Shown: positions 6,746 through 39,394 of the stretch, one piece after another
Layout: every line of letters starts with the position of its first letter
Numbering within the stretch: position 1 is the first letter of the stretch
Assembly (NCBI GenBank): GCA_016748015.1
Contig: JAAOMT010000590.1
Coordinates: 302,544 to 366,543 of the forward strand
Length of the DNA: 64,000 nt
Origin: Geosiphon pyriformis uo1
Taxonomy: Eukaryota; Fungi; Glomeromycota
Direction: 5' to 3'
Translations under genes and position numbers: made by a program
The notes under the pieces: generated by a model
The model's database searches: none
Seen by the model: only the letters and a program-made list of their open reading frames with translations
Told to the model about the DNA's origin: nothing

Positions 6746-8945
6746 TAAGTGAGACATGGTTCTTCATTCTATTTTCCGTGTTTTTCTGGATAACCATATT
6801 TTTCTTTATTACAATAGTTATAATAGTAATGGGTGGAGTTTCTTGGGTTTTTGTCTAGTGCATTGCATGCAGTTATGAATGAGAGTTTTTTATTGCAAAC
6901 TAAATATTCTAGCTTTAATCTGTGTTGCTGGTGGTTTCTTTGTGGATTTATCTGATTTCATTCAAGTCTTCTTTCACTTGTCCAAGTTGGTACAGCCAGT
7001 AGTTCTGTTCTTTAGTCATTAGTCCATGAGAGCTGATAAGTTTTGATGGCTGGTAGGGCTGAATTTTTTTTGAATTCAAAGATGGGTTTTTGGTTGATGC
7101 TGGGTTTTTGGAAGTGGTTACATGTAGCTAAAATTTTGGTATAGTGGCCATTATAGCTAATAAGAAGCCCTTGAGTAGTCCAGTATAGTATAATGTTGGC
7201 TTTTGTTAACCAGTCATTCCTTACTAATGTTTGATATTGTGTAGCATCCATTATTAATACTTTTGTAGGTATTATTATGCCATTAATTTCAAAAAGAAAT
7301 GAGTTGATTTCACCATAAGACAGCTTGGTACTTTTATTGGCTGTTATAATTTGGGACATCACAGCATGATCAACTTTGAAACCCAGTTGGTTTACTAGTT
7401 AAAGTGTAATGATGCTTCCAGCAGATCTGTGATATAAGATAAGTTTAATTGAGATGTTGTTTACAATTGCTTTTGTATACATAGCAGGAATTGGGCATTT
7501 TTTGTCCAATGTTGCTTCACTAAACATAGCTTTGTTTTCCTTTAATTCAAAAGAAAAAATGGCTGCAAGGCTGCTATCTTCAGTGGTGACTGCTGGTAGT
7601 ATAGTTTGGCTTAAATTTTGATTTTTGGGCAAATTTTTAATTCTGATTGTGTTTCTATCATTATTGTTTTTAATGTTCAAATTTTTCAGTATATTAAGGT
7701 AAGTTTGCTAATAATTTTGGTAGTTTGGATTCTCTGAACCAATGCATTTTGATTCCACATGAACAGATTTTGAGGCTCAAGATGCTAATTTGGGTTGACT
7801 ATCATGGGCTGTTGCTGATAAGTTCCTTGATTTTGGTACGTTGTTACAGTTTAAGAATTTAGCAAAAAGAATCATAAAAATAATACAAACTATTCAATCA
7901 TAATATAGCACAGTAATAATCTTAGAAAGGTAATGATTAACATAGTAGCAAACACCATCTCGCGATAGTGGCAAGCACCAGTTCACAATAGCAGCCAACA
8001 CCAACTGGTGATAGCAGCAAGCACCAGGTTGAAATATNNNNNNNNNNNNNNNNNNNNNNNNNNNNNNNNNNNNNNNNNNNNNNNNNNNNNNNNNNNNNNN
8101 NNNNNNNNNNNNNNNNNNNNNNNNNNNNNNNNNNNNNNNNNNNNNNNNNNNNNNNNNNNNNNNNNNNNNNNNNNNNNNNNNNNNNNNNNNNNNNNNNNNN
8201 NNNNNNNGGGGTTTGAAAACCGTGAAGAGGAGTCTGAATCAGAATCCGAAAAAGAGACCAGCGAAAAAACAATCACAAGACCAGTCACTGGAACAAGCAG
8301 CCAGTCCAGAAACCAAGAAACTCGTGATCAAGAGAAAGAACCGGATATAAGAGAAGCCACCTTTAGGAACGCTCAAGAAAATATCATCCCACCTCCTCTT
8401 AGATCAATAAACCCACCAGCAGAAAATGGCAACGAAATGACCACACCATACATTGCAAGACTAACAGATTTCTCAGGAGAGGAAGAAGAAACGGACGTGC
8501 ACACATGGCTCAGAGAAGCACAAAAAACCATCCAGGCAAATAACTGAAACAACCAAAGAGCAATTCAAATATTACCTTTCTTCCTGAAAGGCACAGCCAA
8601 CTCGTGGTATCAAAGCCTGGAAACAAAACTCACGAGCTTCGCCGAATTTAAAAATGCACTCCTGGAGTATTTTAGCGACCCAAACGCCGTAATCCAACTA
8701 CAGAACGAATTCAATACTATCAAGCAAAATACCGGTGAAACTGTCACCCAATACTTTGCTCGATTCAATCGAATTCGCCGTCAGATTGAAGCGATTGAAC
8801 AAGGATACTACACTGATCCTCAGGTTTTAAATCAGTTTATTAGAGGATTAAAAAGCAGCATTTTAGGAAGAGNNNNNNNNNNNNNNNNNNNNAAAAAGGA
8901 AATAATAATTAGCAATAATTCATTGCTAAAAAGGAAAAGACAAAA

Positions 8946-11340
8946 GTGGCGACAAAAACCCTTAATCTTACTGTTCTTGAATTCTGCCGTGCTATTTACA
9001 CACAAAATCAAAGTGATCTTGGATTACCAGAAGGGTGTTGTCTAGCAGAATCTGCTCTCACTTATTATATCAACACCAGAATAAATTATCATATAGGAAA
9101 GGAAGAAGAACCACATGACACAAAACTTGGATTGTATAGAGAATTATCACAATACACTACAAAAGAAGTAGCAGTAATAGCCGCAACTATTGTCAAAATC
9201 CATCAAGAAATTGAGCAATATGCCAACGAAAATTTTCCAATATCCACAGGAAACACTAGGGAACGCGCCAACAAAACCAAAGAAAATTTAGAAACTAATC
9301 AGGAAAGTAACCAGCAAAAACTAGGAACACCAGCTCAAACGCCAAAGAAAACTGTCACTCAATCAATAAAGAAACAACGTATTTATTCACCAGAAGATAA
9401 ATCATACCATTTTTCACCAGAAAATAAGATACAAATTCCATTAGGAGCTGCATCATCATCAACATCAACTCCACAAACGCCAAGAACTCCTAGTTATATT
9501 GATAAAATTAAACAACGTAACTGGGGAGACATACCAATTACAGGAGGATATTCATCACTATTCCAAAACCTTCTTTTTCAGCCAAAATTTAGAACGGGGT
9601 TTGAAAACCGTGAAGAGGAGTCTGAATCAGAATCCGAAAAAGAGACCAGCGAAAAAACAATCACAAGACCAGTCACTGGAACAAGCAGCCAGTCCAGAAA
9701 CCAAGAAACTCGTGATCAAGAGAAAGAACCGGATATAAGGGAAGTCACCTTTAGGATTGCTCAAAGAAATATNNNNNNNNNNNNNNNNNNNNNNNNNNNN
9801 NNNNNNNNNNNNNNNNNNNNNNCTCCTGGAGTATTTTAGCGACCCAAACGCCGTAATCCAACTACAGAACGAATTCAATACTATCAAGCAAAATACCGGT
9901 GAAACTGTCACCCAATACTTTGCTCGATTCAATCGAATTCGCCGTCAGATTGAAGCGATTGAACAAGGATACTACACTGATCCTCAGGTTTTAAATCAGT
10001 TTATTAGAGGATTAAAAAGCAGCATTTTAGGAAGAGTACGCCCTGCCCACCCTTATTCCTTACCAGAAGCCATTACGCTCGCCAGAGCCCTTGAATCGGC
10101 TGAGAAAGAAGCTAACCATAGTCAAATGGTTAACATGGTAATGGAGGAAAATAAGACAGAAACATTAAAGAAAAGAGTAATGCGATTAGGGGAGGAACTC
10201 TCTAAGAAAATAGAAAGTTACCTCATCCCGGATCCGAGAAAAAATACATACCAACCACCCCAAAGATGCAGCCAGGAAGTCAGCGACAGTCGAAATAATC
10301 GCCCGTCGCGCCAGGAATTCAGAACAGAAACACGCGCCTGCCATTTTTGCAAACGCGTAGGACATTTGATTAGTCAATGTCGAACGCGAATGATGTAGAA
10401 AGCACGCGAAAATAATTACTACACGCCACCCCAAATGTCCAGAAACCAGTACACGCCAATACCATGCCAATATCCCACTACGTATCAAAATCAAGGAGCT
10501 TACCAGCAACAGCCCATGATAGCCAACCCGAATTGGCATCCCGAGGCCCGAAATCAGCCCATGTGGAACCAGAACGCGTTGGTCCAGAGGAATCCAAACT
10601 GCGCCGGAACCAATCAGCAAACCAATCCAAACTACCAAAATTATCAACAAACTTACCTTAATATACCAGAAAACCTGATCATCGGAAACAATGACGATAG
10701 AAACATAAACAGAACCAAGAATTCCTCCAAATTGAGCCAGACAATACCACCAGCAGTTGCCACCGAAGATAGCAGCCTCGCAGCTATTTTTCCTTTTGAA
10801 TTAGAGGAAAACGAGGCTATGTTCAGTGGAGCAGCATTGGACAAAAAATGCCCAATCACTGCTATGTATATGGAAGCCACTGTAAACAATACCCCAATCA
10901 AACTTATCTTAGACAGTGGATCCGCTGGAAGCATCGTAATGCTTCAACTAGTAAACCAACTGGGTTTCAAAGTTGATCGTGCCGCGACGTCCCAAATCAT
11001 AACAGCCGATGGAAGTACAAAGCTGCCTTATGGCGAAATCGACTCATTCCCTTTCGAAATTAACGGCATAGTAATACTTACAAAAGTATTAGTAATGGAC
11101 GCTACACAATATCAAGCGTTAGTAGGGAATGACTGGCTAACAAAAGCCAACGCCACCCTAGACTGGACCACCCAAAAGCTTCTGATCAATTATAATGGCC
11201 ACCAGGCCAAAATTCCAGCCACCTGTGGCCACTTCCAAAAACCCAGCGCCAACCAAAGACCTACCTTCGAATTTGAGAAAAATCCAGCACTACCAGCCAT
11301 CGAAACCTATCAGCTCTCTTGGGCTGATGACCAAAGAACA
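8946..11340 (+). pseudogene. gag: B1 gag-protease region (N-terminal extension, capsid, CCHC knuckle, aspartic protease)
   Basis: GTG start at 8946. Capsid FLKGTANSWY in the duplicated contig at ~8580. Knuckle CHFCKRVGHLISQC at ~10339-10380. Protease LILDSGSAGS at ~10903 and ALVGNDWL at ~11115. A few premature stops and gaps. Confidence 0.85.
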
Positions 11341-11579
11341 NNNNNNNNNNNNNNNNNNNNGAACAATACCTCGCCCAAATCAACACTTACCTCTGCGAAA
11401 ACTGTCTCATCCCGTGCCAAAGTCAGTGCTGTGAAGAGTGTCAAGACGAAAGGGACTTAGAAAGAAAAATGGAAATTGAGAATCAGCAGTCTCAAAATCA
11501 ATCAATAAATCAACAAGACTCACCTGACGGTCCCGAGTCAGAAAAATTTGTAGCCTATACCGACCTAGAACAGGTGACC

Positions 11580-12012
11580 AACATCCAATACTTCGACAAC
11601 GGGCACTTAGGAATAATACCCGAAAGAGCCCATCCAACCGACGCCGGATTCGATCTACATTATCCGGAAGACCAATCCACAACGTTACTACCCAGGAGCA
11701 TCACCAAAATCGACCTAAAATTAGCGGTTGAAATTTCGCCAGGAATAATGGTTCAAATGGTGTCGCGATCAAGCCTCGCGAAAAAAGGAATAAGTGTTCA
11801 AGGAGGAGTAATTGACTCCGGATACACTGGAAATTTGATGGTTTTGCTATAGAACAATTCAGAAAAGCCTTATACCATTGAATCTAAGGAAAAGATTGCA
11901 CAAGCAATTTTCCTACCATTGGTAAAAATTGGGAAATTTGTGCCAGTGGAAAATCGTGAGGAATTGTCACAAACAATGAGAGGAACTTTTGGTTTCGGAT
12001 CGACAGGAAAAG
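11580..12012 (+). pseudogene. dut: B1 dUTPase domain (trimeric type, all five motifs, one CAG>TAG stop at 11850)
   Basis: DAGFDL, SRSSLA, GGVIDSGYTG, EKIAQAIF, RGTFGFGSTG. Confidence 0.93.
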
Positions 12013-12898
12013 GAATTGAAGCAAATTTTGCTGAAACAATAGAGGAAAAAGGCGAAGTAATTAAAAATGAGCGNNNNNNNNNNNNNNNNNNNNCCGAATG
12101 GAACCAGGTAAGTTCACGAAGAAACCACCAGCGACGCAGACCAAAGCTAGAATGCTCGGTTTGCAAGAAGAAACTCTTGTCTATGACTGCGTGCAGCGCA
12201 CCGGACGAAGACCCAAGAAACCCCACCCACTACTATTGTAACCATTGTAACAAAGAAAAATACGGTTACCCAGAAAGACACGGAAAATGGGACGAGGAAC
12301 CGTGCCTCACTTGTGGAGAACCGTTACCAAAAGGGTGTGACTGGAACGACTTACCAGGCAGAGGAGGAACGTGTGATGCAACTTGCCAATACACGATCCT
12401 CATCTGTGACTGGGTAAGAGGAGGAACGCCGTTCAAAGCAGCATTCAACAGAGCGTTAAAAAGACTACAGCACTACCCACATGACGAGAACGAGTTGTAT
12501 AACACCGCACAAGCCAAAGTAAGAGGAGGAACCGCCGAAGAAATACGACATTGGAAAGAGTCAGCCGAAGTAGCCGACAAAGTCGCCAGCTACAACATGT
12601 TCAACCCAGTGGACGAATTCCAGGACTACTACCAACAACTATGCCCCACTCGACAAGAGCAAGAACAATACCTCGCCCAAATCAACACTTACCTCTGCGA
12701 AAACTGTCTCATCCCGTGCCAAAGTCAGTGCTGTGAAGAGTGTCAAGACGAAAGGGACTTAGAAAGAAAAATGGAAATTGAGAATCAGCAGTCTCAAAAT
12801 CAATCAATAAATCAACAAGACTCACCTGACGGTCCCGAGTCAGAANNNNNNNNNNNNNNNNNNNNAATTAACTTCGATTTCGACGGAGCTCAATCTTG

Positions 12899-12912
12899 AA
12901 AGGAGGGGATAA
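12899..12912 (+). promoter_or_regulatory. Polypurine tract of B1
   Basis: AAAGGAGGGGATAA immediately before the TG of the 3' LTR. Confidence 0.88.
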
Positions 12913-13781
12913 TGTTACAGTTTAAGAATTTAGCAAAAAGAATCATAAAAATAATACAAACTATTCAATCATAATATAGCACAGTAATAATCTTAGAAAG
13001 GTAATGATTAACATAGTAGCAAACACCATCTCGCGATAGTGGCAAGCACCAGTTCACAATAGCAGCCAACACCAACTGGTGATAGCAGCAAGCACCAGGT
13101 TGAAATATCAAAAAGAAAGTATTTTCTCGTAGAACTACAAACATGTATATATACAGTAGTTTTAATATTGGGAAAGAATCAATCAAGTAATAAAAATCAT
13201 AACTTATCAAGCAACAGATCCAATTTTATCCAACAAACTCCACTTATCAAATCATACTTTCAAATTAAATATCCCAAGAAACCTTTAAAAATCAAAAAGA
13301 AATGAAAAAGAATATTTAAAACGGAACTATCACAACCCAAAGTATTAAGAAACTTACTTGTATTATTTATTGAATGAAACTATCATTCATCAACTGAATC
13401 CCTTGGAAGAATAATCCTTGATCAAGATTATTCACGTTGTTACTAATTGATAAAAGCTTTATTGTGAGAATTAGAAAAGCGCTAAAGACCATTAACATTC
13501 TGTGTTTCTAGATTAGAGAAACACATCAGGCAATTGCAAGGATAGCCTCAGAGAAGACCCCAGACAGTAGGTAGATTTCAGTTCAGCCTCTGAGAAGGAG
13601 TACATAAACACACACAACAATCAAGAATTAAAGAATAACTTACATCACAACAGTAAAAAGAAAGCCTTCAGTGTAACAGTGACATTATCACACAAATAGA
13701 ATTGAGGAACTCACGAAAGACTGATTGCAATTAAAGCGGGATATCAGCAATTAAATATAACAAGAAAACCATCCCGTAACA
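12913..13781 (+). repeat. 3' LTR of B1 (869 bp)
   Basis: TGTTAC...GTAACA ends. The first ~195 nt read identical to 7842-8037. 23-bp tandem motif at 13014-13105; TATATA at ~13147. Confidence 0.93.
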
Positions 13782-17775: not shown

Positions 17776-18625
17776 TGTTATTTATAGAATATAGAAATTA
17801 TACATTAGTACATAAAGTAACCAATTAGAATAAGACATAGTAAAAGTAAAATTTTAGGATTTCTTTCAGAGGAATTGCAGGATTCTAGAATTACAGGATT
17901 CTAGTATAAAGAATTGCTCTCAAGAAATTACAGGATTCCAGAAATTTTAGAATTTCTGGTTAGAGAATTGAAAAATTCAAGAAATCTTGTATAATAAAAT
18001 TTATGTATATATAACAATAGTATTAGAAACAAAAAAGAGAATCCTTAGTTTAGAGCTTTTAGCTCCAACTCCATACTCATCTTTTCATATAATAGTGTTT
18101 TATAACTTGAAATAGAAACATTAAATATTAATAAAATATTTGTTACTATTACAATCTATTTTTTTATTATCAATAACTTATGTTAATAACTATCAATATT
18201 TAATTATACTGAACCAATAGTTCTTGATCATGGCTATTGATAGAATATTAACTTCTAAATTGTCTTGGCTTATTTTTTTTTATGTTTTGATTTTATTTCT
18301 TTTTTTATTTTGTTTTGTTGTATACTAATTAATTAAGAATTAAGTGCTAAGTTACTGATGTTAAAAATTGCTTGGTAAAAGACTCCTGTGAGCAGGTAAA
18401 CACTTGAAATTAAGGATTACTTATCAGAGAATTGCTGATTACCAAGCCAAGAAAAGAATTGATGAAATTGTGATTCTAAGAGACTACTAAAACAACTATT
18501 AAATCTCTGTTTATTATACAAAAGACTCCACCAAAACTTTCAGATATTACCAATCATATTAGCTATTGAGCACCAAGTTATGAGTTTGTTATTTGTTTTT
18601 AGACTCCAAATAATCACTTATAACA
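17776..18625 (+). repeat. 5' LTR of D (850 bp)
   Basis: Pairs with 37415-38265; related to the A LTR. Confidence 0.88.
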
Positions 18626-21600: not shown

Positions 21601-24492
21601 TTCTACTTAAATATAAGAATTACAAAAAAAAGCTTTCTTCCATAAAAGTTTAAGTTATATCTAACAAAGATTACTGGACCAGAACTCATTATTACTGCAA
21701 GTTATATCATAAAAAATGCTATGGCTATCTAAAAAAACAAAATTAGTAGGACAACAAATCATGTCTCACTTGTGAAGAAACACTACTTAATAAGAAAATG
21801 TAAGATAATATTCTTGGATGAGGAAGAATGTGCAACACTTCATGCCAGTACACAATCTTTATAAGTGACTGAGTGAGTCATAGAACATTTATTAATGCAG
21901 TCTAGCATCAAATAATATCTCACTTGGATGGTTACCCACACAATAAAGACAAAATCTGGTAAATAACAAATGCCAAAATGGAAAAGTAAGATTCTGGAAA
22001 TAAAAAATAATCTACTGAAACCAGTTAACATTATCTTTATCCCCAATTCAAATGCATTTTTTGAAATTGAAACAGATCCAGAAAAATTCTATGAACATTA
22101 CCAAAACCTAGCATCTACCAAAAAAGAGCAAGAGCATTTGAAACAATTAAATACAAAATTGTGTAAATATTGCCTAATTTCCAGTGACTTCAAATATTGT
22201 GATGATTGTGACATTATTTATAATTTATCTTCACACATAATTTACATAATCTCAGAAGAAAAAAAATCAATCAGCAAATGTGCTGTAAAATTGGAATCAA
22301 AATTTAATTCCAATCTAAACTTCAATAATAATGATAATAACAATGACTTTAGCTTAATTTAAAATAGCAATAACAACAGTAACAATTTAAACTCTGCTTT
22401 AAACTCAGAACAATATATTACACTTTTTGATCTTTTTAAGAAGCAAAAACTCAAATAGTTTAGCAATAATAATGAAAGTATTATGCCAGAACATGTGCAT
22501 AATACTAATACAGAATTTGATCTAAGATATCCCAGAAAAAATGCTATCAAATTGAAACCATCTTTGTGCATATGCATTGATTTAAAATAATACTAGAAAT
22601 TCTGGTAACAACCATGGTTCAATTAGCATCTAGATCTAGTTTGACAAAGAAGAAAATCAACATTAGAGGAGAAATAATTGATGCAAAATATGTAGAAAAT
22701 ATTATTATAATGCTACAAAATAATTTAGAAAAATCATATATTATTGAAGCAAATGAAAAAATAATATAGGCAATATTCTTACTTCTAGTGAAAATAGCTC
22801 AGTTAATGTCAGTAGAAAAAAAAAATTAAGAATTACAGCAAGAGAAAAAAGTAAATTCAAATCCATAAGTAAAATAAATATACCAGTTAATATAACAGAA
22901 AAAAAAATTATTGACAAAAGAAAAGTTATCTTCACTCATCAATCAATTTTTATTTTACTATATGACTAGTATTTAGTAGTTATAAAAAGGAAAATAAGAG
23001 ATTAATCCCAGATTTTTGAAACAGAAGCTACCATTTGTGAATCAGGAGAGATTGCTATTACCAATCTTTACATACTGGTTAAAAATAACAAACACATCAA
23101 AATTTTCATTCACAACATAACTGAAGACACTATCAAAATACCAAGTGAAACTATCATTAAATATATAAACACTGAAGTTGAAAACTAACCTCCAAGCACT
23201 ATTCCAGATTTTTCACAACTGTGTAAATATGTGAATATTATATCACAAACAATATACAAACAAAAAAAATCTTATTTACTTTAACCAGAACAATTAGAAC
23301 AAATAAACTTGAGAAATTTAGACCTATTTCAACATATGCAACTTAAGATATTACTCTACAATTTTATTGATATTTTTATCAGTGAAAACAAATTTGGCAG
23401 AACTGACATCATCCAACATCAAATCAAAACTGGAAATACAATGTTAATTAAACAAAAAACATACAGAGTACTATCAACAAGCCATGAAATTATCTGACAA
23501 GAAATCAATCAGATGTTAAACAATAAGTTAATTCAATTATTAATAAATCTATGGTTATTATCAATGATACTAGTCTATAAAAAAAATAGAAAAATCCACT
23601 TTTGTGTGGATTACAGAAAACTCAACAGTATTACTTAGAAAGACAACTATTTAACTCCACAAATTCAAGAATTGTTTGATGCTTTTAAAGAAAAAAAATG
23701 GTTTTCCACTTTAGACTTAAACAGTAATTACTGGCAAGTAGCCATGAAACTGGAAGACAAAAAAAAAACTGCTTTTACAATCAAAAAAAGAATTTTGAGT
23801 TTGATATTATGCCATTTGGTTTAACTAATGCACCAGCCATTTTCCAATGATTCATAAAAATTGTTTATACTAGACTGCTATGGAAATTAGTAGTTGTTTA
23901 TTTGAATAACACCAATGTGTTCTTAAAAATATTTAATAATTATTTACATCACAGCAAGTGTTTGAAAAATTATGAAAAGCTGGATTGAAACTAAATACAA
24001 TTAAATGCTTCTTTGGTAAAACAAAACTGAAATTCTTGAAACATATTGTAAGCAAAGATAGTATCAAAACAGATCCAAATAAAATTGAGATTGTTAAAAA
24101 CTTTCCAGTACCAACAAGTCTTATAGAATTAAAAGCATTCTTGGGATTTGCTGGATATTACTACCACTTTATCCAGAATTTCTCCAAACTGGCTTAACTA
24201 TTCTACCAGCTCCAAGCCAAAAATGTGAAATATAAATGGACAGAAACTCAACAAGAAGCTTTTGATATACTAAAAAGAAAGCTCATCTAAGCATTAATAT
24301 TAATCTATTTAGATTACAACAGACCATTTATTATTATTACTAATACATCAGGTCAAGCATTAGGAGCAGTACTATCTCAGAGAAAACCGGATAGATGAAA
24401 ACATCTAGTAGTATATATTAGCCAAAATTTAAGTTCAGCTAAAAAGAACTATGAAATACCAGCATTAAAACATTTAGCTATTTATTGGGCAG

Positions 24493-25477
24493 TGTTACCA
24501 GACGAAATTAGAGATATCATTTAGCATGAAACTATCTTATAATTCCTATCATTAATTAGTATATATTATCATTCAAATTATCATTTATTACATTAAAAAA
24601 AAAAAATGTCCAAAATTATCATTTAATTAATAACCCAAATTGTACACAACACAAATATAACCTAATTGTGATGATCAATCATGCAATACCCTGAACTATG
24701 TAATATTCAAAAGTTTGCCGAAATTTATAGAAATTTGCCGAAATAATTGATAGTTCACTGAAATATCTAATAGTTCGCAGAAATAACTTGTAGTTTGCCA
24801 AAATGTATTTTTAGTTCAGTGAAATTGTAGAAAATAGCAAAGTTCAAGTTCATAGAATAGTGTTACGACAAGTTATATAAAAGAAGAGCTTCTCTCTTCG
24901 AGAAAATATATCTTACTTTAGTTTTATCACTTAGAACCATTCCTACACACACAAAAAGAAATAAATATCAAATAATTTGAAAAACCAAATTTTTTAATTA
25001 TTTGCACTTGGAAAATCCCCAAGAACCCAACTAACATTTTGAAATTGATTAGCTACCAACTTCAGTAAACTGTTAATGACTCCAGGCCTGAATTGAAAAC
25101 GTTTCCCTTGACAGAATTTCATTTCTTTTACATCTTTTTATTTTTTTTCTTTTATTTTCTTACTATAATCATTAGGGTAGTCTACAGACAAGATTTTTGT
25201 AGAAGAGTTGACTTTCACAGCAAAGTAACTATACATTTTAGTGAGCTTTTAGACGAGCAATTCCTGGGAAAGAATTGACATTTACTACAACGTAACTACA
25301 TAAAGTAACTGGCACAGAATTGGCCATTCCACTTATAAGCCCAGCAATTCAAATTATAGGAGATAATTTGAAGATAAATTCAGTTACTGGAGGTTCAACC
25401 ACATCCAGAAAATGTGAATTCACAGCAAACAAGCATCAACAACATTTAAGAAAAGAGACCAAAAACCTCTAGTAACA
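24493..25477 (+). repeat. 5' LTR of C (985 bp)
   Basis: TGTTACCAG...AGTAACA; direct repeat of 34105-35093; AGTTCGCCGAAAT-like array at 24709-24826; TATATAAA at ~24874. Confidence 0.95.
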
Positions 25478-25495: not shown

Positions 25496-28400
25496 AAATA
25501 ACACAGCAACAACAAATTCAAAGTGGCGACTGCCTCAGACATCACAACCTTAGAGTACTATCAATCGATTTACACACACTGCAAACAACAATTTGAAATA
25601 CGCGATGGAATCATAGCTTTCAAGAAAACACTTTTTCAATACATCGAAAATCGAATCAACAACTACCTCTTTGGAAACTATAATATTACAACAGTTAAAA
25701 GAGATCTTATTGAGAACATACTATACTATTCCAACACTGAATCAGAAAACATTAGTACTGAAGCTTGCGCTACTTATTTTAAAGAACTTGATTATAATAT
25801 TATTCAATTCTGTGAAGAAAAATATTCTGCAAACACACAATTTGTCTTTGAACTCGAATCTGAAACTGAAACCAGTAGCAACAAAAGACAAAGAGATAAC
25901 TGACCTGTTCACACAACACCCAATACTCCCAAAATATCATTCAAACATTTACAAACACCTGAACAAGGAACCAGTTCAAAACTTCCACTTACTATCACAC
26001 CTTTTTCAGCTTCACTTGCACAAGCACAAACACCTAATTCACCCTTAAATCGATTTGCAAGACCAGAAGATTTTACATTACTCAGAAGTCCCACTAGACA
26101 ACAAGAACCCCTTCAAACTAGTTCCAATCTCCTTGATTTTCTAACTGAAAATCAAAGTGAACACTCTGAGACAGCAGCAAACAAAGAAAACAACTCTGAA
26201 ATAACTGAAAAAGAATCAATAGACAGTGAAAAGGAAGAAGACGAAATGACAACATACATCGCAAAAATCCCTGAATTCAGTGGAGAAGATATTGAGACCA
26301 GTCCCCAAGAATGGCTCAACCAAGTTACTAAAGCTGGAGATGCAAATGGATGGAATGCTGCCAGAATGTTAAGAACAATTCCCTACTTTCTCAAAAGAAC
26401 AGCAGGAGAATGGTTTGAAAACTTGGCCACCCCATTTAATGATTAGAATGCTTTCAAAGCAGCCTTTCTTGAACAGTTCACCGACAATAACACCTCCATC
26501 ACTCTTCGCAATTGTTTTCGAAATATCAAACAAAAACTCTTCAAATCTGTTATGACTTATATTGGGAAATTCAACAAACTTCTCAGACGAATTCGCCAAC
26601 TCGAGACAAATGATTATTATTCTGATGCTCAAATTTTGGATCAATTTATCACTAGTCTAAAAAATAAACTAATTAAAAAGATTTGCTCACATGTGCCAGA
26701 AGATTTAAACTCTGTCATACAGCATGCGAAAAGATACGAAATGGCCATAGAAGAGGCCAACCGCACAAAACTTGTAAATTTGGCAATTGGAGAAACCAGT
26801 TCAGCAGCCAAGGAAAAAATTGACCAACTCACAAAGAAGGTTGAAAACTATTTCACCAATCAACAACAACAGCAACCCCAAAGATATCAACCACCCCAAA
26901 GATGAAATCAAAATAACTTTGCACCACTTTCCAATAACCAGCCTCAGAATTGCCATTACTGTAGAATCTCTGGCCACTGGAAAAGAGATTGCAGAAAGCT
27001 ACAACAAGACCAACAAAATAGAAGTAATCAACATTACCCTTCACCACAGCAATCTTATTATTAACCGCCACCACCAGCTTACTATCCATCAAGACCTCAA
27101 TACCAAAATAACTATCATTAGCCCACTCCACAGCCAATCCCACAGCAATACCAACAACCGTTCACACAACATTATCAAGTATCTGCTTGAAGACTGCTTA
27201 CACAAAATCAATTCACACCACAAAACCGATACCAAGCAAACAACAATAGAATTAGTTCGAACAACCAATTGGTTCCCTGAAATACCACTCAACCAAGACC
27301 CAACTACTACCACACTCAATCCAGTTATTTAACAATGCCGGAAGAACAGGATTTTCACTATACTGCACTCTCGGAAGGTAGAGCTGCAACACAACAACAA
27401 AACCCTTCCTATACTCCCACCACAATTCCACCAGCCAGAATCGCTGAAAACGCTAACCTTTCAGATATATTCCCTTTTGAATTCAAAGCAAATGAGTCAC
27501 CATTTCTGCTTAGCAATGCAGCCACCAATGAACAAAAAGCAATCATGGTCATATACACTGAAGCCAAAGTCAAAGGAAAGACAATTTGCTTGATCCTAGA
27601 CAGTGGATCTGCTGGAAGCATTATCACTTACCAGTTAATGCAACAGTTGAAAAGAAATGTCAACCAACCAGCTCAAACAGTAATTGTCACTGCTGATGGC
27701 ATGAAAAAGACCCCAGTAGGAGAAATTGACAATTTTCTGTTCACTCTTGATGGAATCACTATTCCAGTCAAAGTTCTTGTAATGAACGCACCCCAATACC
27801 AAGCTCTCGTCGGAAATGATTGGCTTCAAAAAGCCAATACTAATCTGAATTGGGAAACACAAGAGTTAATAATCTCCTACCAAGGACAACACGCCTGGGT
27901 ACCTGCCATTTGTAGTACATTCAACAAACACTCTGAAAAAGCCCCGGCTTTTGAATTTGAACCAGAAGAGGAAAAACCCCTCATTGAAACATTCATGGCT
28001 CTTGGATCAACATCCAACTGGGCCGAGGAAACAGAACAAGAACATTTTACCGCACACTTTGAACCTAAAACCTCTGGATAGAATATACCTTACTTAAAAC
28101 CCAAACCAAGAAAACAACGTTCCTATATTCCCCTTAAATGTAAGGACTGCCACAAGAAACTATTGTCAATGGGAGCCTGCATTTTACCTGAAGAAAAATA
28201 TAAAAATCATACTTGTTATTACTACAAGGCTTGCCACAAAGAACAATAGGGCCATCTAATAAAAAGAAGCAGAAAATGGGACAACACCCCTTGTTTGACT
28301 TGTGGAGATATGCTACCAGAAGAATGCAATTGGATTGATGTAGCCATGAGAGGAGGAGTCTGCGATCAGATCTGCCAATATGCTTTATCAATTTCAGAAA

Positions 28401-28869
28401 AAGTAAAAAGAGGAACACTCTTTAATGCAGCATACAACAGTGCTTTCAACAAACTTTATCACTACCCCCATAATGCCGAAATGATTTTTGACCTAGCAAT
28501 GGCATTAATTAATAGAGCTACTAAAGAAGATGTTCGCCAAATGAAGGAAGCAGAATACATTGAATACACCATGGAATTAACTGGATTCGATTACGAAGAT
28601 AAAGTAGAAGTCTACTACCAAATCACAAGTCACACCTATCCAACCCAAGAAGCTCAAATTCAATGATTAGAGCAAATAAACATTAAGCTATGTGAAGAAT
28701 GTATTATGCCTTGTGATGAACAGTGGTGTCCTGAATGCTACGCTCTTAGCATTCCCTTGTCCAGCAAAAATAATAAATACGAAATTGAATTTGGAGAACT
28801 TGAAGTGACAGAAGAAATTGAGACAACACCCATCTATCTCATTGAAAATCAGCCTGCTTTACAACTCAA

Positions 28870-29290
28870 ATATTTTAACAACAATGGACAAGGAATAAAA
28901 CCAGAAAAAGCCCACAAGATCAATGCTGGATATGATCTAAGATATCCAGGAAAAGATACTCTTACTCTCAAACCCAAATCTCTCACAAAAATCAACCTCA
29001 AAATTGTCCTCGAAATCCCACCAGGAGCAATGGTTCAAATTGCTTCTCGATCATCTTTGGCAAGCAAAGGAATCAATGTTAGAGGAGGAATCATCAATGC
29101 TGGATACACAGGAGACATCACAGTCATGTTACAAAATGAAACTGATAAACCTTTCAAAATTGAATATGCTGAAAAAATTGCTCAAGCTATCTATCTACCC
29201 TTAATCAACATTTCGGGTTTACAATTAGTTAATCAAAGAGAACAGTTGGGAAAAAGCGAAAGAGAAACACAAGGTTTTGGTTCAACTGGA
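28870..29290 (+). pseudogene. dut: C dUTPase domain
   Basis: NAGYDL, SRSSLA, GGIINAGYTG, EKIAQAIY, RETQGFGSTG. Confidence 0.92.
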
Positions 29291-29698
29291 CATTTCACAG
29301 TTCCAGTAAACATAGCTCTCAATGAACAGAAAGAATCTCACCAGATTTTACAACTTCCACAACCAATTACCATTTCACCCTTTGGAGAACACCCTGAAAT
29401 TTACATTTGTGAAAAGCCAACAACCACACAACAAATTTTTGAATCAAACGAACAAATCTGCTTGAAACATAAAATTTCGATCCCAAACATTTATATTCCA
29501 GAAGGAACAAAGAAAGTCTGAGTTACTTTTTACAATCCCAACAATTATCCCATAGTTTTATTAAATAACTTAGAAATTGGAATCATTTACAGTAACATCT
29601 TTCAACAAGAATTACCCCAAACAGTCCTTGATTTTTCTGAAATTATTGGACATTTACTACCAAAAATCAATCCAAACCCCAGCTCTGAAAACTACCAT

Positions 29699-30423
29699 TG
29701 TTACGGTTTAAGAATTTAGCAAAAAGAATCATAAAAATAATACAAACTATTCAATCATAATATAGCACAGTAATAATCTTAGAAAGATAATGATTAACAT
29801 AGTAGCAAACACCATCTCGCGATAGTGGCAAGCACCAGTTCACAATAGCAGCCAACACCAACTGGTGATAGCAGCAAGCNNNNNNNNNNNNNNNNNNNNN
29901 NNNNNNNNNNNNNNNNNNNNNNNNNNNNNNNNNNNNNNNNNNNNNNNNNNNNNNNNNNNNNNNNNNNNNNNNNNNNNNNNNNNNNNNNNNNNNNNNNNNN
30001 NNNNNNNNTTATTGAATGAAACTATCATTCATCAACTGAATCCCTTGGAAGAATAATCCTTGATCAAAATTATTCACGTTGTTACTAATTGATAAAAGCT
30101 TTATTGTGAGAATTAGAAAAGCGCTAAAGACCATTAACATTCTGTGTTTCTAGATTAGAGAAACACATTAGGCAATTGCAAGGATAGCCTCAGAGAAGAC
30201 CCCAGACAGTGGGTAGATTTCAGTTCAGCCTCTGAGAAGGAGTACATAAACACACATAACAATCAAGAATTAAAGAATAACTTACATCGCAACAGTAAAA
30301 AGAAAGCCTTCAGTGTAACAGTGACATTATCACACAAATAGAATTGAGGAACTCACGAAAGACTGATTGCAATTAAAGCGGGATATCAGCAATTAAATAT
30401 AACAAGAAAACCATCCCATAACA
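29699..30423 (+). mobile_element. Family-B LTR inserted in C (solo LTR, or a full element collapsed at the N gap 29880-30007)
   Basis: Matches 12913-13781; TSD CCAT at 29695-29698 and 30424-30427. Confidence 0.88.
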
Positions 30424-31909
30424 CCATGTTATCATGGAAAAACTATCTCGAATCAATATGGAACAACTTGAACCACAACAACAGACCCAGCTCAAAGAAC
30501 TAATTGCAGAATTTGCTGATATCTTCACTGAAAACAACAATGACTTAGAAAGAACCGATTTGGTCCAACACCAAATTTATACAGAAGATGCCAAACCAAG
30601 AAGACAACAAGCATATTGAGTTGCTCCAGAAAGCCACCAATTTATCCGAAAAGAAGTACAATAGATGCTTAACAATGGGCTTATCCAATTATCAATGAGT
30701 CCATAGGCCTTACCAGTGGTCTTAGTTAAAAAGAAGAATGGAAAGATATGATTTTGTGTTGATTATTGACAACTTAACAGTGTCACCATTGGGGATGCTT
30801 ACCCTCTTCTGCGAATTGATGACATGTTAGATGCCCTTGGAAAATCTAAATACTTTCAACATTAGACCTAGAAAGTGGATACTGGCAAGTTGCCATGGAT
30901 CCCAAAGACTGCCCCAAAACAGCATTCACAACACAAGGAGGAAACTACGAATTCAATGTAATGCCCTTTGAATTATGCAATACGCCAGCAACATTTCAAA
31001 GACTCATGAATGTTGTATATGCTGGACTCTTTTGGAAATCAGTAGTTGTCTATCTTGATGACACTGATGTTTATTCCCCATCTTTTGGACTTCATTTAAT
31101 TCATCTGTGAAAAGTTTTTCAATGATTACATAGAGTAGGATTAAAACTAAATATTGAAAAATGCCATTTTGGAAAAACAAGTTTGGCCTTTCTTGGTCAC
31201 ATAGTTAGTGAAGAAGGAGTCAAACCAGATCCAGGAAAAATCAGTGCTGTTAAGAACTTCAAAGTTCTATGAAATACTACAGAACTAAGAGGATTTATAG
31301 GATTAGCATCCTACTATCGGAAGTTTATCAAAGGATTCTCGGAAATTGCAAAACCTTTCAACTAGCTCACCACCAAAAACATGGAATACAAATAGACTAC
31401 TGAACACCAAAAAGCTTTTGAAATTCTCAAGAAAAAACTGACAACAGCCCCAATTCTCGCCTACCTGGATTTCAGCAACCAATTTTGACTAGCTACAGAT
31501 GCTTCATATACTGCCTTTGGTGCCATCTTATCACAACTAGATGACAATGGAAATGAGCGAGTAATTGTTTATGCTAGTAAAACATTAAAACCAGTTGAGA
31601 AAAACTACCCTGCCACAGAACTAGAAACAGCAGCTGTAATTTGGGCCCTACACCACTTTAATCTTTATCTCAGGCTTAAAGAATTTGATATTATCACTGA
31701 TAATATTGGACTCAAATGGCTTCAGAACAAAAATACTCAGCTAAATGCAAAACAAATCTAATGGACAGGATTTCTAGCAAATTATCAATACATAGTACAT
31801 CACAAACCAGGAAAACTCCACACCAATGTTGACTGTTTCTTCAGAATGAGACAAAATTAGAAAACAAAAACCAACACTCAACTTAACCAACCAAAAGAGC
31901 CAACAAACA

Positions 31910-33295
31910 ATGAATTCAGAAAACTACAACAATCTCAAACAATATTTGGAAACATTAACAATTCCAACAGATTGGTCTCCAGATAAAAAACATCAACTAC
32001 AACAACAAGCCAAACAATATTTTCTACACAATAACATTATTTATCATCGAAATTTCAAAAACCCAGACAAACCACTCAGACTAATACAAGAACAGGAAAA
32101 AGAGACCATATTATACAACATGCACTTAGATCCTTCATCAGCACACTTCAGAAAAGATAGCACCACTCAAAGAACACTAGAATACTACTTTTGGCCTTAA
32201 ATAAGGAAAGACATTCATGAATATGTCGAATCTTGTGATAGTTGTCAAAGAAGAGGAAGAACACGCCCTACTAAACCATTAAATTCAATCAAAGTTGGAC
32301 AACCCTTTGACCAAGTTGGTATCAATTTAGTCAGACCATTATCTATTACCACTCAAGGAAACCGTTATATTGCAGTAGCTGTAGACTATCTTACTAAATG
32401 GTCCGAAGCCAGAACCATTCAATGAGCAGATGCGAAATCAGTAGCAAATTTTATCTATGAAAACATCATTTGTAGACATGGATGTCCAATTGAACTTTTA
32501 TCTGATCAGGAGACATATTTTGTGAACAACCTAATACAAAAAATTTGCAAACAATTCAATGTCAAAAGACCTCTGTCTTCACCCTATCATCCACAAACAA
32601 ATGGACTTGTGGAACGTTTTAACAGAACATTGTGTGAGTTATTAGCCAAAGTCTCAACCAATTTTGAGCAAGAATGAGATATTTTTATTCCATTAGTGTT
32701 ACTAGCATATAGAACACTAAAACAAGATACCACAAAGCACATACCATTTGATTTAACTTACAGAAGGACAGCAATGCTACCAATTAAGTTTACAGTGGAA
32801 ACATACTCAGCACAACCAATCAATAAAAACAATTTTCAGGAAACACTTTAATGAAGAGCTTACACTCTGCTTAGCATGTTGGAAGAAAAACGACAAATAG
32901 CAGCCACCCATATTGAAAACTCCCAAGCTTGACAAAAAAAACGGCATGATAACAAATTGCCTCCAGTTACCAATAAATTTAAAATCGGAAACAAAGTTTT
33001 CTTACACAAAACTAAAGCTGAAAAACAATGGAGTGAGAAATTTGAAAATAAATGGGATGGACCATTTTTTATTCATGAAGTTTTAAACAATGGATCATAC
33101 AAGCTAAGACTTGATGACAAAATTCTAGCAAAAGTTGCACATGGAGATCGTTTGAAACACTATAATTCCAGAAACAATCTTGAACTATTAATTCCACAAA
33201 TTGGTACACATTCTCTTTTAATCAATTCCGAAGACATTCCCTGAAATTTAGAACCAGTAGTTGTTATTGAACAGCCTCCCAACTTGAACACTTAA
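31910..33295 (+). pseudogene. int: C integrase (HHCC, DDE core, GPY/F module, no chromodomain) in its own ORF
   Basis: ATG at 31910. HLDPSSAH...CDSC; VAVDYLTKW; LLSDQ; SPYHPQTNGLVERFNR; WDGPF. Several TGA/TAA stops derived from Trp/Arg/Gln codons. Confidence 0.92.
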
Positions 33296-33416: not shown

Positions 33417-34093
33417 ATGACTATTCCTCAAAACATTCAACAATTATCTCAAAAACTAATGTTAGCTTTAAAAACAATACCCGAATTATCTATTACTGTT
33501 ATTGGAAATTATATTAATTATACCCAAACAGAAGTAGTTACAAATTTAGCCCCAAATTCACGAAAATATCACCTGTATAAAAAGAACACAAAAAGTTATA
33601 CTGGAATTCACCTGCCAGAACTTTTAAAGCTTGCTTTAAGAGAAAATCTAATGCTCACTCTGATTAGTATTCCACCAAATGCTACAATTTAACAAAGACT
33701 TCAACTGTGTTTCAATAAGGAAAACACTGAATATCCTCCAATCTATAGATATTTTCACATTGGAAAAACACTCTACAAACAGAAACTGGAACTTACAACA
33801 GCAAACCTCACAAAAGAAGCTATTCAGAAACAACTCCACAATAAATTCAAGACAACAGCTGGATCAACAAACAGTCGCTACAGGCTCAGAGCTGTTCTTA
33901 GACTTTATAACCTATTCTACACCTGTAAAAACGTACTACAAAACCCAATATTTCAACCTTTGAAGATTCAATACATTGGAAAGCTCACAGAACTGAAATT
34001 TCAACATTTTTCAGACCAAATTTCTTCAATAATTTTGGATTATTATCTGGAAATAACAAACAGTACTTGGACTTTGATGGAGCTCAGTCTTGA
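33417..34093 (+). pseudogene. C ORF3, unknown ~225 aa protein between integrase and PPT
   Basis: One frame is open from ATG 33417 to the PPT with a single TAA (33690). Its C-terminal part resembles D 37245-37330. Confidence 0.65.
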
Positions 34094-34104
34094 GAAAAAA
34101 ATTA

Positions 34105-35093
34105 TGTTACCAGATGAAATTAGAGATATTATTTAGCATGAAACTATCTTATAATTCTTATCATTAATTAGCATATATTATCATTCAAATTATCACTTAT
34201 TACATTAAAAAAAAAAAAAAAATGTCCGAAATTATCATTTAATTAATAACCCAAATTGTACACAACACAAATATAACCTAATTATGATGATCAATCATGC
34301 AATACCCCGAACTATGTAATATTCAAAAGTTTGCCGAAATTTATAGAAATTTGTCAAAATAATTGATAGTTTACTGAAATATCTAATAGTTCACAGAAAT
34401 AACTTGTAGTTCGCCGAAATGTATCTTTAGTTCAGCGAAATTGTAGAAAATAGCAAAGTTCAAGTTCATAGAATAGTGTTACGACAAGTTGTATAAAAGA
34501 AAAGCTTCTTTTTTTGAAAAAATGTATCTTACTTTAGTTTTATCACTTAGAACTATTCCTACACACACAAAAAGAAATAAATATCAAATAATTCGAAAAA
34601 CCAAATTTTTTAATTATTTGTACTTAGAAAATCTCTAAGAACCCAACTAACATTTTGAAATTGATTAGCTACCAACTTCAGTAAACTGTTAATGACTCCA
34701 GGCCTGAATTGAAAACGTTTCCCTTGACAGAATTTCATTTCTTTTACATTTTTTTATTTTTTTTTTTTTATTTTCTTACTATAATCATTAGGGTAGCCTA
34801 CAGACAAGATTTCTGTAGAAGAGTTGACTTTTACCGCAAAGTAACTATACATTTTAGTAAGCTTCCAGACAAGCAATTTCTGGGAAAGAGTTGACGTTTA
34901 CTACAACATAACTACATAAAGTAACTGGCACGAAATTGGCCATTTCACTTATAAGCCCAGCAATTTAAATTATAGGAGATAATTTGAAGATAAATTCAGT
35001 TACTGGAGGTTCAACCACATTCAGAAAATGTAAATTCACAGCAAACAAGCATCGACAACATTTAAAAAAAGAGACCAAAAACCTCCAGTAACA
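34105..35093 (+). repeat. 3' LTR of C (989 bp)
   Basis: Direct repeat of 24493-25477; preceded by a decayed PPT at 34092-34104. Confidence 0.95.
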
Positions 35094-35335
35094 GCAGTTA
35101 TAAAATGGAAAAAATATTTAAGCCAAAAATTTGATGTATATACTGATCACAAAAGATTGACATCAATTCAGAAACAAAAATTTGGAAACAACTACCATGC
35201 CAAAAGAAAATTAGAATTTTTATTATTCAAATATATTGTATATTATAAAAAAGAAAAAGAAAATAGAAATTTTGATGGTTTGTTGTGAATGAAACAAATC
35301 TAAAAACATTTCAAAACCAAAAATATAACAAAAAA

Positions 35336-36713
35336 ATGGATACACAAAAATATCAACAACTTTAACACTATATTAATACCCAGTAGTTTAAGAAGAAATT
35401 ATCTCAAAAAGAATGAAACAACATAAAAACAATCAAAATATTTTATTACTTACCAAAATATTATATTAGAAAAACAGAAAAGATTCAAATCAACCACTCA
35501 GAGTAATCACAGAACCAGAGAAAGAAACAATACTATACAACATGCACTCAGATCCAACAACAGAACATTTTTATAAAGAAGCAACCATAGAAAAAACCAG
35601 AAAATAATATTATTGGTTATTAATGTATCCAGACATTATTTAATATGTTTAAAATTGTGATGCTTGTCAGAGAAGAGAAGGAATAAAACTCAGTAAATCA
35701 CTAAGACCAATTAAAATAAGACAACTATTTAATAGAATTGAAATTGACTTAGTTGAACCATCAATAATAACCAGCAAAGACAATTGTTATATAGCAGTAG
35801 CAATAGACTATTTCACAAAATAGTCAGAGGTGAAGGTAATTCAAAAAACAAATACAGAATCTATAGCCAAATTTGTTCATCAAGACTTGATTTGTTAACA
35901 TGGATGTTTAAAAAAATTATTATCAGACCAAAAAACTCACTTTGTAAACAGAACATTAATGGAATTAATCCAAAGATTTAGAATCAAAAAACTATTATCA
36001 TTATTATATTATCCACAAACAAACAGTTTAGTTGAAAGATTCAACAGAATATTGTGTGAAGCAATTGCCAAAATCAGTCAAAAAAACCAAGAAGAATAAG
36101 ATTTGTTTATATTATCAGTATTATTTGCTTATTAGACAATGAAACAAGATACTATACAAACAACATCATCTGAATTTGTTTATAGTAAAACAGCAATATT
36201 ACCAATGAAAATAAAAATCAATATATATTCAACTGAATCAATAACAGAAGCCAACTTCCAAAAAACATTGTTAAAAAGAACATACAAATAATAGAAACAT
36301 TGGAAAACAAAAGACAAAAAGCAGCTGATAACATTCAAAAATCACAAAAAAAACAAAAAAAATAACATAATAATCAATTACCAAATAAACCAGTTGAATT
36401 CAGAATTGGAGACAAAATACTCTTATATTGTACCAAAGCAGAAAAACAATAGAATGGAAAATTTGACCCCAAATGGAACAAACCATTTCACATAGAAGAA
36501 ATTTTAGGAAATAGAGCTTACAAACTAAGATGAGATAATAAAATCTTAGTAAAAGCAGCATATAGAAATTGACTGAAACCATATTCTAATACAGTATTAT
36601 CATCTACTAATAATATTTTACAATTGGGAGTACAACAAATATTAGTCCAACCAGATGAGATTTCATGAGATTTAGAACCAATTATAGTCATCAATACAAA
36701 CACATCAAATTGA
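35336..36713 (+). pseudogene. int: D integrase, degenerate, own ATG
   Basis: MDTQKYQQL start; HSDPTTEH...CDAC; YYPQTNSLVERFNR; C-terminal DLEPIIVI. Confidence 0.85.
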
Positions 36714-37414: not shown

Positions 37415-38265
37415 TATTACTTATAAAATATAGGAATTATACATTAGTACATAAAGTAGCCAATTAGAATAAGACATAGTAAAAGTGGAATTCTAAAATT
37501 CTTCTTAAAAAAATTGCAGGATTCCAAAATTACAGAATTCTAATATGAAAAATTGCAAAATTCCAGAATTCTAGGATTTCTGGCTAGAAAATTAAAAAAT
37601 TTAAGGAATTTTATATAACAAAATTTATGTATATATAACAGTAGTATTAGAAGCAGAAAAAAGAATTCTTAGTTTAAAATCTTTAGTTTTAATTCTATAC
37701 CCATCTTTTTATATGATAGTGTTCTATAACTTGAAATGAGAACATTAAATATCAATAAAATACTTATTACTATTACAATCTATCTTTTTATTATCAACAA
37801 TTTATGTTGATAATTATCAATACTTAATTATACTAGACCAATAGCTTTTAATTATGATTATTAATAAGATATTAATTTTTAAATTGTCTTGGCTTATTTT
37901 TTTTTATGTTTTGCTTTTATTTTATTTTTTATTTTGTTTTGTTGTATACTAATTGATTAAGGATTAAGTGCTAAGTTACTAATGTCAAGAATTGCTTGGT
38001 AAAAGATTCCTGTAAGCAAATAGACACTTAAAATTAAGAATTACTTACCAAAAGATTGTTAGCCACCAAGCTGAAAAAAAAATTGATAAAATTGCAATTT
38101 TGAAGACTACTAAAACAACTATTAAATCTCTGTTTATTATATAAAGAACTCTAACAAAACCTTCAAACAACCAAAATCTTTAGATATTACCAACTATATC
38201 AGCTATTGAGCACTAAGTTATAAGTTTGTTATTTGTTTTCAAACTCCAAATAATTATCTGTAATA
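37415..38265 (+). repeat. 3' LTR of D (851 bp)
   Basis: Pairs with 17776-18625; termini decayed to TATTAC...GTAATA; PPT remnant at 37401-37414. Confidence 0.87.
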
Positions 38266-39394
38266 TTGGTTAAAGCAGTTACTTATTTTTTTCTGTTCTT
38301 TTTTTATTGAAATTTTGGAATAATACTTAGTAATAAATAGTTTTACTATGTCTAATAATATATGTTATTTTGTTTAAAATATTTATATGACAATTGCTAA
38401 TATGTATTAAGAAGTAGACTTTAATGCCAAGATTATTATTAGCTTTTTTATTTGTAAAATTAATTAAATACAGATAGTATTGGTTTGACATTCTGATTTT
38501 TATATGTTTGTTAATTTTATTAGCAAAACTATGACCAATTTTAAAACTTATATAATAAAAGCTATTTATAAAAGACTCTTAGTTGTTGTTTATAAAAGAC
38601 TGTATAATAAGTTATACTTGAATGTTTTGTGTTTATTCTGTGAAAAAGTGGAATTCTCAGATTATTTGTTTATATATTCAAAAAATATGAACCAACAGAA
38701 AGAATTTATTATAAGTTATGTTAAGTTTTAGTTATTATTGATTGGTAAAAAAATGTTCATATTATTTTTTGTATTATAGTCTTTTTTCTTTTTAATATTG
38801 AATTGTATATGGTGTTTTGCAAAAAATTTATTCTAAGAAATTAACTTAAGAATTTTTTGGCAATATATAATAATAATAAAAAGACAATTTTTATATTAGT
38901 AAGTTTTTTCTGTCAATTGGTTGATTACTATTGTTAAGAGATATAGTCTATTAGAATTAAGCTTAAATTAGAAGTAAAAAAAGCTAAATTAGTAAATAAT
39001 AATAATATAATGTTTAAGATAACTAATATATTGTGTTTAGATAAAATAATTTGTATGCTTAATATTATTAAATTAATAACAATAAGTCTTAATAGATATT
39101 TACTTTGTGTATTTTTTTTTAATATTGATAGTAGTTTAATTGTATATATAGATATGTAGTGTTACTTAAATTGGCTCAAATAATTAGTTACATATAGTAA
39201 ATATATAAGTTGTATTTAGTTAAAGTTACTTAATCTAATTTTGTATATAAGATAACAACTAAACTATACTTGTAAAATAATAATTAAAACAGCAAAAAAA
39301 TTTTGTCAAAGATTTTATTAGATTGTATTTTGTTGTTTATAACAAATTTAATGTTTTTTATGAAAATAATTTTTTGGTATTAAAAAACATTTCA

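Follow-up and report, generated by a model that had tools for sequence, protein, structure and literature searches.

Nested elements C and D and their junctions

The window, a 64,000-nt stretch from Geosiphon pyriformis uo1 (contig JAAOMT010000590.1, positions 302,544 to 366,543), contains two nested, dead LTR retrotransposons of the Ty3/gypsy type, C and D. C is inserted within the RNase H of D and is flanked on both sides by GCAG, and a solo LTR of a third family lies inside C. The domain order in C is gag, protease, dUTPase, RT, RNase H, integrase and a fourth ORF. The features are listed by window position.

17776..18625, plus strand: 5' LTR of D (TG...CA), followed by a TGG-type PBS; 81.7% identity to the 3' LTR
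23288..24492, plus strand: RT and first part of RNase H of D, decayed and broken by the insertion of C; tblastn with the C RT-RNase H, 44-69% identity in pieces
24493..25477, plus strand: 5' LTR of C with the PBS next to it; 4-bp TSD GCAG flanking C; 94.3% identity to 34105-35093
26447..29698, plus strand: gag capsid, aspartyl protease and dUTPase of C in one frame with decay stops; Pfam Retrotrans_gag, Ty3_capsid, Asp_protease_2 and dUTPase
29699..30423, plus strand: solo LTR of the other family, between dUTPase and RT of C, with CCAT flanks and an N gap inside; 98% matches to 7841-8022 and 13367-13781
30424..31860, plus strand: RT-RNase H of C, ending with TAG at 31858-31860; Pfam RVT_1 and RT_RNaseH, translation
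31861..31909, plus strand: spacer of C, 49 nt, A/C-rich, ATG-free, unstructured (predicted folding energy 0)
31910..33295, plus strand: separate integrase ORF of C (YPYY, H2C2, DDE core, SH3/GPY-F region); Pfam Integrase_H2C2, rve and SH3_Tf2-1
33417..34136, plus strand: fourth ORF of C, one internal stop; 33% identity, E 8e-22, to the L002 ORF; family HMM E 4.3e-5
34105..35093, plus strand: 3' LTR of C; 94.3% identity to the 5' LTR
35094..35303, plus strand: rest of the D RNase H, ending with TAA at 35301-35303; translation resumes the RNase H broken at 24492
35304..35335, plus strand: spacer of D, 32 nt, A-rich, ATG-free, from the sequence
35336..36662, plus strand: separate integrase gene of D, decayed (stops, frameshifts); tblastn with the C integrase, 42-47% identity
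about 37415..38267, plus strand: 3' LTR of D; 81.7% identity to the 5' LTR

The flanks of D, CTGG and TTGG, differ by one mismatch. The marks of a Ty3/gypsy element that were found are direct LTRs with TG...CA ends, a TSD, a PBS, a gag capsid, the order PR-RT-RNase H-IN, and an integrase with H2C2, D-D-E and GPY/F. The first catalytic Asp of the C integrase has become Asn through decay. Among the matches listed, the named relatives nearest to C and D are all Glomeromycota: Rhizophagus irregularis, R. clarus, Cetraspora pellucida and Dentiscutata erythropus.

In C, RNase H ends in RMRQN-TAG and, after the 49-nt spacer, the integrase starts in frame +1 at the ATG at 31910 (MNSENYNNL). In D, MKQI-TAA is followed by the 32-nt spacer and an ATG at 35336 in frame +2 (MDTQKYQQL). 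Translation thus placed the stops, spacers and start codons of both elements where the first-pass annotation had put them. Neither spacer contains an ATG, and both integrase ATGs have an A at -3. Decay has left C with seven internal stops in the RT-RNase H frame and seven in the integrase frame; the latter carries no frameshift, and its alignment to intact relatives starts at Met1. In both elements, the integrase frame is open for 20 codons 5' of the ATG, back over the pol stop. Taken alone, the window's two decayed copies are compatible with decay or a frameshift.

Contigs of related copies came from run X1, which may be the sample of the window itself. Fourteen diverge from C at 31859 yet encode a stop at the same codon, and 11 rejoin C before 31901, just before the ATG, with no indel listed. 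The stop codon of C is absent from the 40 best-supported differences in this run, which yielded 170 further differences.

Elsewhere in the window, positions 7841-13781 and 61304-64000 hold the third family, with gag, protease and dUTPase and no match to RT or integrase; this family is probably non-autonomous. The assembly of these regions is uncertain, as they contain N gaps and exact duplications. At 57571-57966, AT-rich repeats of about 51 nt form a tandem array.

The split among relatives

The best 80 of 464 matching loci from soil metagenome sequence were used to examine the junction in relatives. A locus was scored when the end of RNase H lay upstream of an integrase on the same contig, which was the case for 53 of the 80 (27 unscored). 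All 53 were split and none was fused. Removing two loci without a called Met and seven near-duplicates left 44 non-redundant junctions. The integrase is intact in 38 of these 44 loci, and the split is kept beside long open pol frames. The first-pass annotation had argued that the split is not random decay, and the relatives bear this out: despite the many stops and frameshifts in both C and D, these loci and the shared stop codon of the run X1 contigs make it next to inconceivable that the stops and frame offsets are only the decay of two dead copies. Since the integrase lies outside Pol in 53/53 loci, we file the elements as a Ty3/gypsy-type variant and not as a canonical member.

Protein searches gave the same picture. 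In a length-limited search, the best 120 of 1065 matches to the C integrase were all integrase-only proteins of 390-453 aa; 117 of these 120 begin with Met, and 99 start at the same profile position. Likewise, among the RT-RNase H matches with a complete RNase H end (length-limited search), 96/113 stop no more than 25 residues past it. An integrase with its own start, made apart from Pol, had been proposed in the first-pass annotation, and both the 53 split loci and the 117 Met-initiated proteins agree with it. We are practically certain that the split between RT-RNase H and integrase is a real feature of the lineage.

Six close proteins were found among the best 120 of 597 matches in a search for longer proteins. 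Three of them (P0121, P0122 and P0124, Cetraspora and Rhizophagus gene models) join RT to integrase at three different places with loss of the RNase H end, which points to gene-prediction artefacts that hide the split in protein databases. P0125, which retains the RNase H end and lacks the first 43 positions of the integrase profile, is ambiguous, and P0128 is without a complete RT-RNase H. The sixth, P0123, is a genuine fusion in which the linker is short and the conserved position lacks a Met. This single-member cluster nests within the split clade (support 100) and may be a re-fusion; the split is therefore not obligatory. Viral contigs contributed four distant loci, of which L081 (37% identity) is fused and the other three are fragments. 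P0512 from Lichtheimia ornata is a Met-initiated stand-alone integrase near the split clade; judging from this protein, the split may extend into Mucorales.

In the textbook account, LTR retroelements get their integrase into particles by co-packaging within Gag-Pol. A widespread lineage whose intact members do without a Gag-Pol integrase means that another route exists. Such elements offer natural material for testing the trans recruitment of integrase and, in fungi, reinitiation downstream of a long ORF. The split also explains many stand-alone "integrase core domain" annotations in Rhizophagus, as well as gene models spliced over the junction, and annotation tools that expect one pol frame will miscall split elements as broken or as DNA transposons.

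The pol of LTR retroelements is described as one polyprotein that includes integrase in the available sections of PMC3248453 and PMC5911963. The Ty3/gypsy (Metaviridae) groups with a YPYY motif (such as DGLT-A and Gypsy-1_RO, as presented in the accessible part of PMC2836005) share LTRs, TSD, PBS, gag, domain order, H2C2/DDE and YPYY with the elements described here. They differ in that here the integrase lies outside the pol frame with its own ATG and is followed by a fourth ORF; C also carries a dUTPase. No published description of the split layout was found in a literature search at the level of titles and abstracts, and the accessible portions of PMC6839031, PMC2774666 and bioRxiv 10.64898/2026.05.21.726589 contain nothing on it.

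Inheritance of integrase with RT and the likeness to Ginger1

RT and integrase were compared with quick trees built from 64 of 129 available pairs, among them 35 in-group elements with both domains. The integrase tree reproduces 13 of the 15 well-supported splits of the RT tree, and the RT tree 13 of 17 from the integrase tree; no well-supported RT and integrase splits conflict among the 35 elements. Patristic distances for the two domains correlate at 0.55 (0/2000 permutations). Congruence of the RT and integrase trees, a check suggested by the first-pass annotation, was thus observed. The integrase is a separately initiated gene that is inherited with RT.

The in-group formed one branch (support 93) in the first trees. 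Once two long outgroups were left out, the free search missed this branch and constrained trees scored higher (AU p 0.87 for RT, 0.68 for integrase), so that one clade is allowed, not proven. The neighbors in the trees are mostly unnamed fused Ty3/gypsy-like proteins. A placement of C as sister to the overlap loci L028 and L064 (97 in one tree) was not recovered in a second tree.

The first-pass annotation had also raised the idea of a captured or exchangeable Ginger-like gene. As far as the accessible text of PMC2836005 describes Ginger1, it has terminal inverted repeats of 40-270 bp and no RT, and it resembles the present elements in its stand-alone integrase-type ORF, YPYY, H2C2, DDE, GPY/F, 4-bp duplication and TGTNR termini; the same text reports YPYY for Ginger1 and for some Gypsy groups. 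C and D, in contrast to Ginger1 with its inverted repeats, have direct LTRs, gag and RT. In the integrases of this lineage, the YPYY motif is conserved as Y12, P19, Y/F37 and Y/F45, and H69, H76, C106, C109, D136, D196, E232 and G379-P380 are invariant in 36 relatives.

No inverted repeats flank the integrase of C or D among the 25 longest of 37 inverted pairs in the window, and the targets, GCAG for C and CTGG/TTGG for D, are unlike the CCGG/CCGT of Ginger1. No Pfam family of an OTU or Ulp1 C-terminal domain was detected in the best 120 integrase matches. A profile search without a length limit did retrieve stand-alone integrases with Ulp1 or UCH tails, which is the Ginger1 layout. These group in a clade of their own (99) that lies apart from the split clade (94); they are Ginger1-like by layout, the tree holding no named Ginger1.

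Capture of a Ginger1-type transposase gene, or its exchange, would account for the YPYY motif and the 4-bp target duplications, and Ginger1-like proteins, the split clade and some fused elements do lie on one side of a 99-supported branch. We nevertheless consider it highly improbable, given the agreement of the two trees, the separate clade of Ulp1/UCH integrases and the lack of a protease tail and of a CCGG/CCGT target. The idea is thus not supported for elements that also have LTRs, a PBS and RT; their integrase is Ginger-like only in its YPYY motif. In a more speculative view, which we consider improbable, Ginger1 DNA transposons could have arisen by way of an integrase that had already left pol and gained a start codon.

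Expression of the integrase and the fourth ORF

The distance from the pol stop to the integrase ATG ranges from -20 to 1600 nt among the 44 junctions. Thirteen overlap or abut (five as AUGA, two as UAAUG), 26 have spacers of 24-98 nt and five are longer. All three frames of integrase relative to pol occur (11/15/18), and overlap and spacer states interchange at least four times on the RT tree. An A is present at -3 of 33/44 integrase ATGs compared with 95/255 internal ATGs (Fisher p 4.5e-6), and the second residue of integrase is D, E or N in 44/44. The 26 short spacers contain two ATGs, both in L054, versus 16.2 in dinucleotide shuffles (0/500 as low), leaving 25 ATG-free. Within RNase H, ATGs occur at an ordinary density of roughly one per 30 nt up to some 60 nt from the stop. 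GTA is equally depleted in the short spacers (2 vs 23), so the ATG deficit is not unique and the argument from it is weakened. Five of the 44 spacers exceed 200 nt and contain several ATGs, which do not always form an orderly chain. Two loci carry one or two additional ORFs of 127-427 aa in the interval from RNase H to integrase (L061:5345-7011 and L063:521-1237), and stop-start overlaps link these ORFs into a chain.

Four candidate junction signals were rejected. TURBS motif 1 (UGGGA) occurred in 2/39 loci, with 1 and 2 in the controls. The region of the stop had no structure in common among loci (mean z -0.4 to +0.5), a slippery heptamer was missing from all 10 minus-one-type overlaps, and no splice acceptor was conserved among 39 junctions.

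Termination-reinitiation is the mechanism that we favor. The pol frame would end just past RNase H, where ribosomes would terminate, and on the same RNA these ribosomes would restart at the nearest AUG to make integrase. The junction would set the level of integrase independently of RT; a hairpin that precedes the AUG in some families could be a protein-binding control or recruitment site; and free integrase, which would be packaged separately as the first-pass annotation proposed, would get to the cDNA through contacts with RT, Gag or RNA, not within Gag-Pol. This mechanism is favored because the overlaps, the ATG-free spacers starting at the stop, the interchange of states and the chained ORFs all fit it. 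Against it stand the lack of a UGGGA motif or shared stop structure and the five long spacers. Also, in families with a -1 frameshift or readthrough into pol, reinitiation would act on an already rare event. Judged from the sequences, a split plus termination-reinitiation for integrase appears slightly more probable than otherwise; whether reinitiation is the best mechanism is close to an even call, and families may differ.

Termination-reinitiation is known from victoriviruses, hypoviruses, influenza B, caliciviruses, SART1 and LINE-1 ORF2, with a 63-nt inter-ORF spacer in LINE-1, and victoriviruses, hypoviruses and SART1 are likewise without UGGGA or have a different motif (PMC5972666, available sections). 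AUGA/UAAUG overlaps, short inter-ORF spacers and fungal hosts are points of likeness with the systems covered there. The differences are that here reinitiation would part RT-RNase H from integrase in an LTR element without UGGGA, and that the junctions mostly span -20 to about 100 nt within one lineage.

The strongest rival, which we regard as rather unlikely, is an internal promoter, placed so that a short subgenomic mRNA for integrase would begin within the spacer or immediately 5' of it. A short 5' leader would be just as compatible with the ATG-free spacers and the good start context, the spacers show an 11.6-fold enrichment of AACGG, and 12/39 loci have a TATAWA no more than 110 nt from the integrase ATG. 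This TATAWA excess is weak (8.1 expected; 35/500 shuffles as high), a promoter gives no reason for the AUGA/UAAUG overlaps, and, with 7-69 nt separating the integrase ATG from the preceding ATG in overlap loci, the start would be confined there to a short stretch of RNase H coding sequence. Upstream of the fourth ORF, TATAWA is present in 19/28 cases versus 7.1 expected, so the lineage may use internal promoters, and the spacers before this ORF are not depleted of ATGs (32 vs 31.6). By these motif counts, the fourth ORF looks promoter-driven and integrase not clearly so.

A hairpin before the integrase AUG brings in a second rival, internal initiation, in which a spacer RNA element would draw ribosomes directly to the integrase start on the full-length transcript, with no need for upstream termination. 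A covariance model built from five spacers had 15 matches in 376 kb, all ending at an integrase ATG and 10 of them outside the seed (L050, L066, L071, L079, L060, L068, L073, L024, L076, L032, L034, L040, L026, L051 and L077). The hairpin consists of two helices with an 11-nt purine-rich bulge and compensatory changes, and it ends 3-13 nt before the AUG. In 13 distinct rows, 99% of cells are paired and 8/12 pairs change on both sides, in an alignment that is model-fitted and of related sequences. Eight loci scanned gave no Rfam match to the hairpin.

Its covariation and position favor internal initiation, as does its presence in L032 and L071, where the RNase H stop lies far off. However, the hairpin was found in only 15/80 loci and the covariance search did not find it in the window, neither in C nor in D. 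It is also short and weakly stable (-7 to -13 kcal/mol, z about -0.5), the overlap junctions have no room for it, and seven hairpin loci still have a long upstream ORF whose end lies 62-75 nt 5' of the integrase ATG. Internal initiation is thus judged unlikely, a little more so than the promoter.

A spliced RNA that brings the integrase AUG to the front, like retroviral env, is very unlikely. In 30/39 junctions, the interval from the preceding ATG to the integrase ATG offers a YAG; the other nine have none, and the YAG positions are scattered. The three annotated gene models that join RT to integrase over the junction would suit splicing, but their joins at three different places with loss of the RNase H end make artefacts likely. 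Reinitiation, splicing and a subgenomic RNA were the routes offered by the first-pass annotation; reinitiation fits best, with its overlaps and ATG-free spacers, splicing fits poorly in view of the nine junctions without a YAG, and a subgenomic RNA is the rather unlikely promoter case above.

Programmed frameshifting or readthrough that still gives a Pol-integrase polyprotein has hardly any chance of being correct: the integrase frame is open back into pol in C, D and 15/44 relatives (frameshift-open), the pol stop is the sole separator in four more (readthrough-open) and the lineage uses recoding signals elsewhere, but 25/44 junctions cannot be joined by one such event, all three frames occur, Met1 and its start context are conserved, and the lack of a slippery heptamer at the integrase junction is telling because recoding signals are seen at gag-pol of the same elements.

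The fourth ORF encodes one small protein family in 29/38 loci with a downstream ORF of at least 95 aa, and the C ORF at 33417-34136 is a member. The protein has 120-240 aa and is helical (for example, L079:5146-5586), and its model is all-helical with a pLDDT of 95. Searches with the fourth ORF gave nothing in Pfam below E 0.01, in PDB sequences below E 0.15 or in the Atlas; the model had no Foldseek match at E 0.001 in the PDB and viral libraries, and the best Z was 5.2 in a wide search. This lack of matches shows neither a new fold nor a function.

To our knowledge, caulimoviruses have no integrase. They are like the present lineage in being reverse-transcribing with several tightly spaced long ORFs, as described with their TAV-dependent polycistronic translation in the available part of PMC5972666, and in that the last ORF looks driven by its own promoter. 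Unlike TAV, the fourth ORF has no Pfam, sequence or fold match to a known protein, and a TAV-like role for its product is a guess. By analogy, a polycistronic LTR lineage resembling a plant pararetrovirus could combine serial reinitiation, a hairpin-gated AUG and a fourth protein acting as transactivator or integrase adaptor, a scheme that we consider improbable. If it were true, the fourth protein would be expressed from its own promoter and would either transactivate or serve as an adaptor delivering free integrase to the particle.

Several other features were observed in single families. An in-frame TGA-CTA lies between two long frames before the RT frame of L047, L048, L049, L062 and L065 and before the protease of L054. 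We take TGA followed by CTA to match a known readthrough context, and these families may reach RT by UGA readthrough. A TTTAAAC heptamer, presumably a typical -1 frameshift site, is located at the gag-pol overlap of L001, L016, L017 and L019. P0354, P0345, L037 and L042 have a long in-frame extension after RNase H; that of P0354 appears by eye to carry a P-loop-like motif and is possibly a nucleotide kinase. In L030, a 314-aa ORF (L030:1945-2886) follows integrase in place of the usual fourth protein, and it contains what looks by eye like a NUDIX box.
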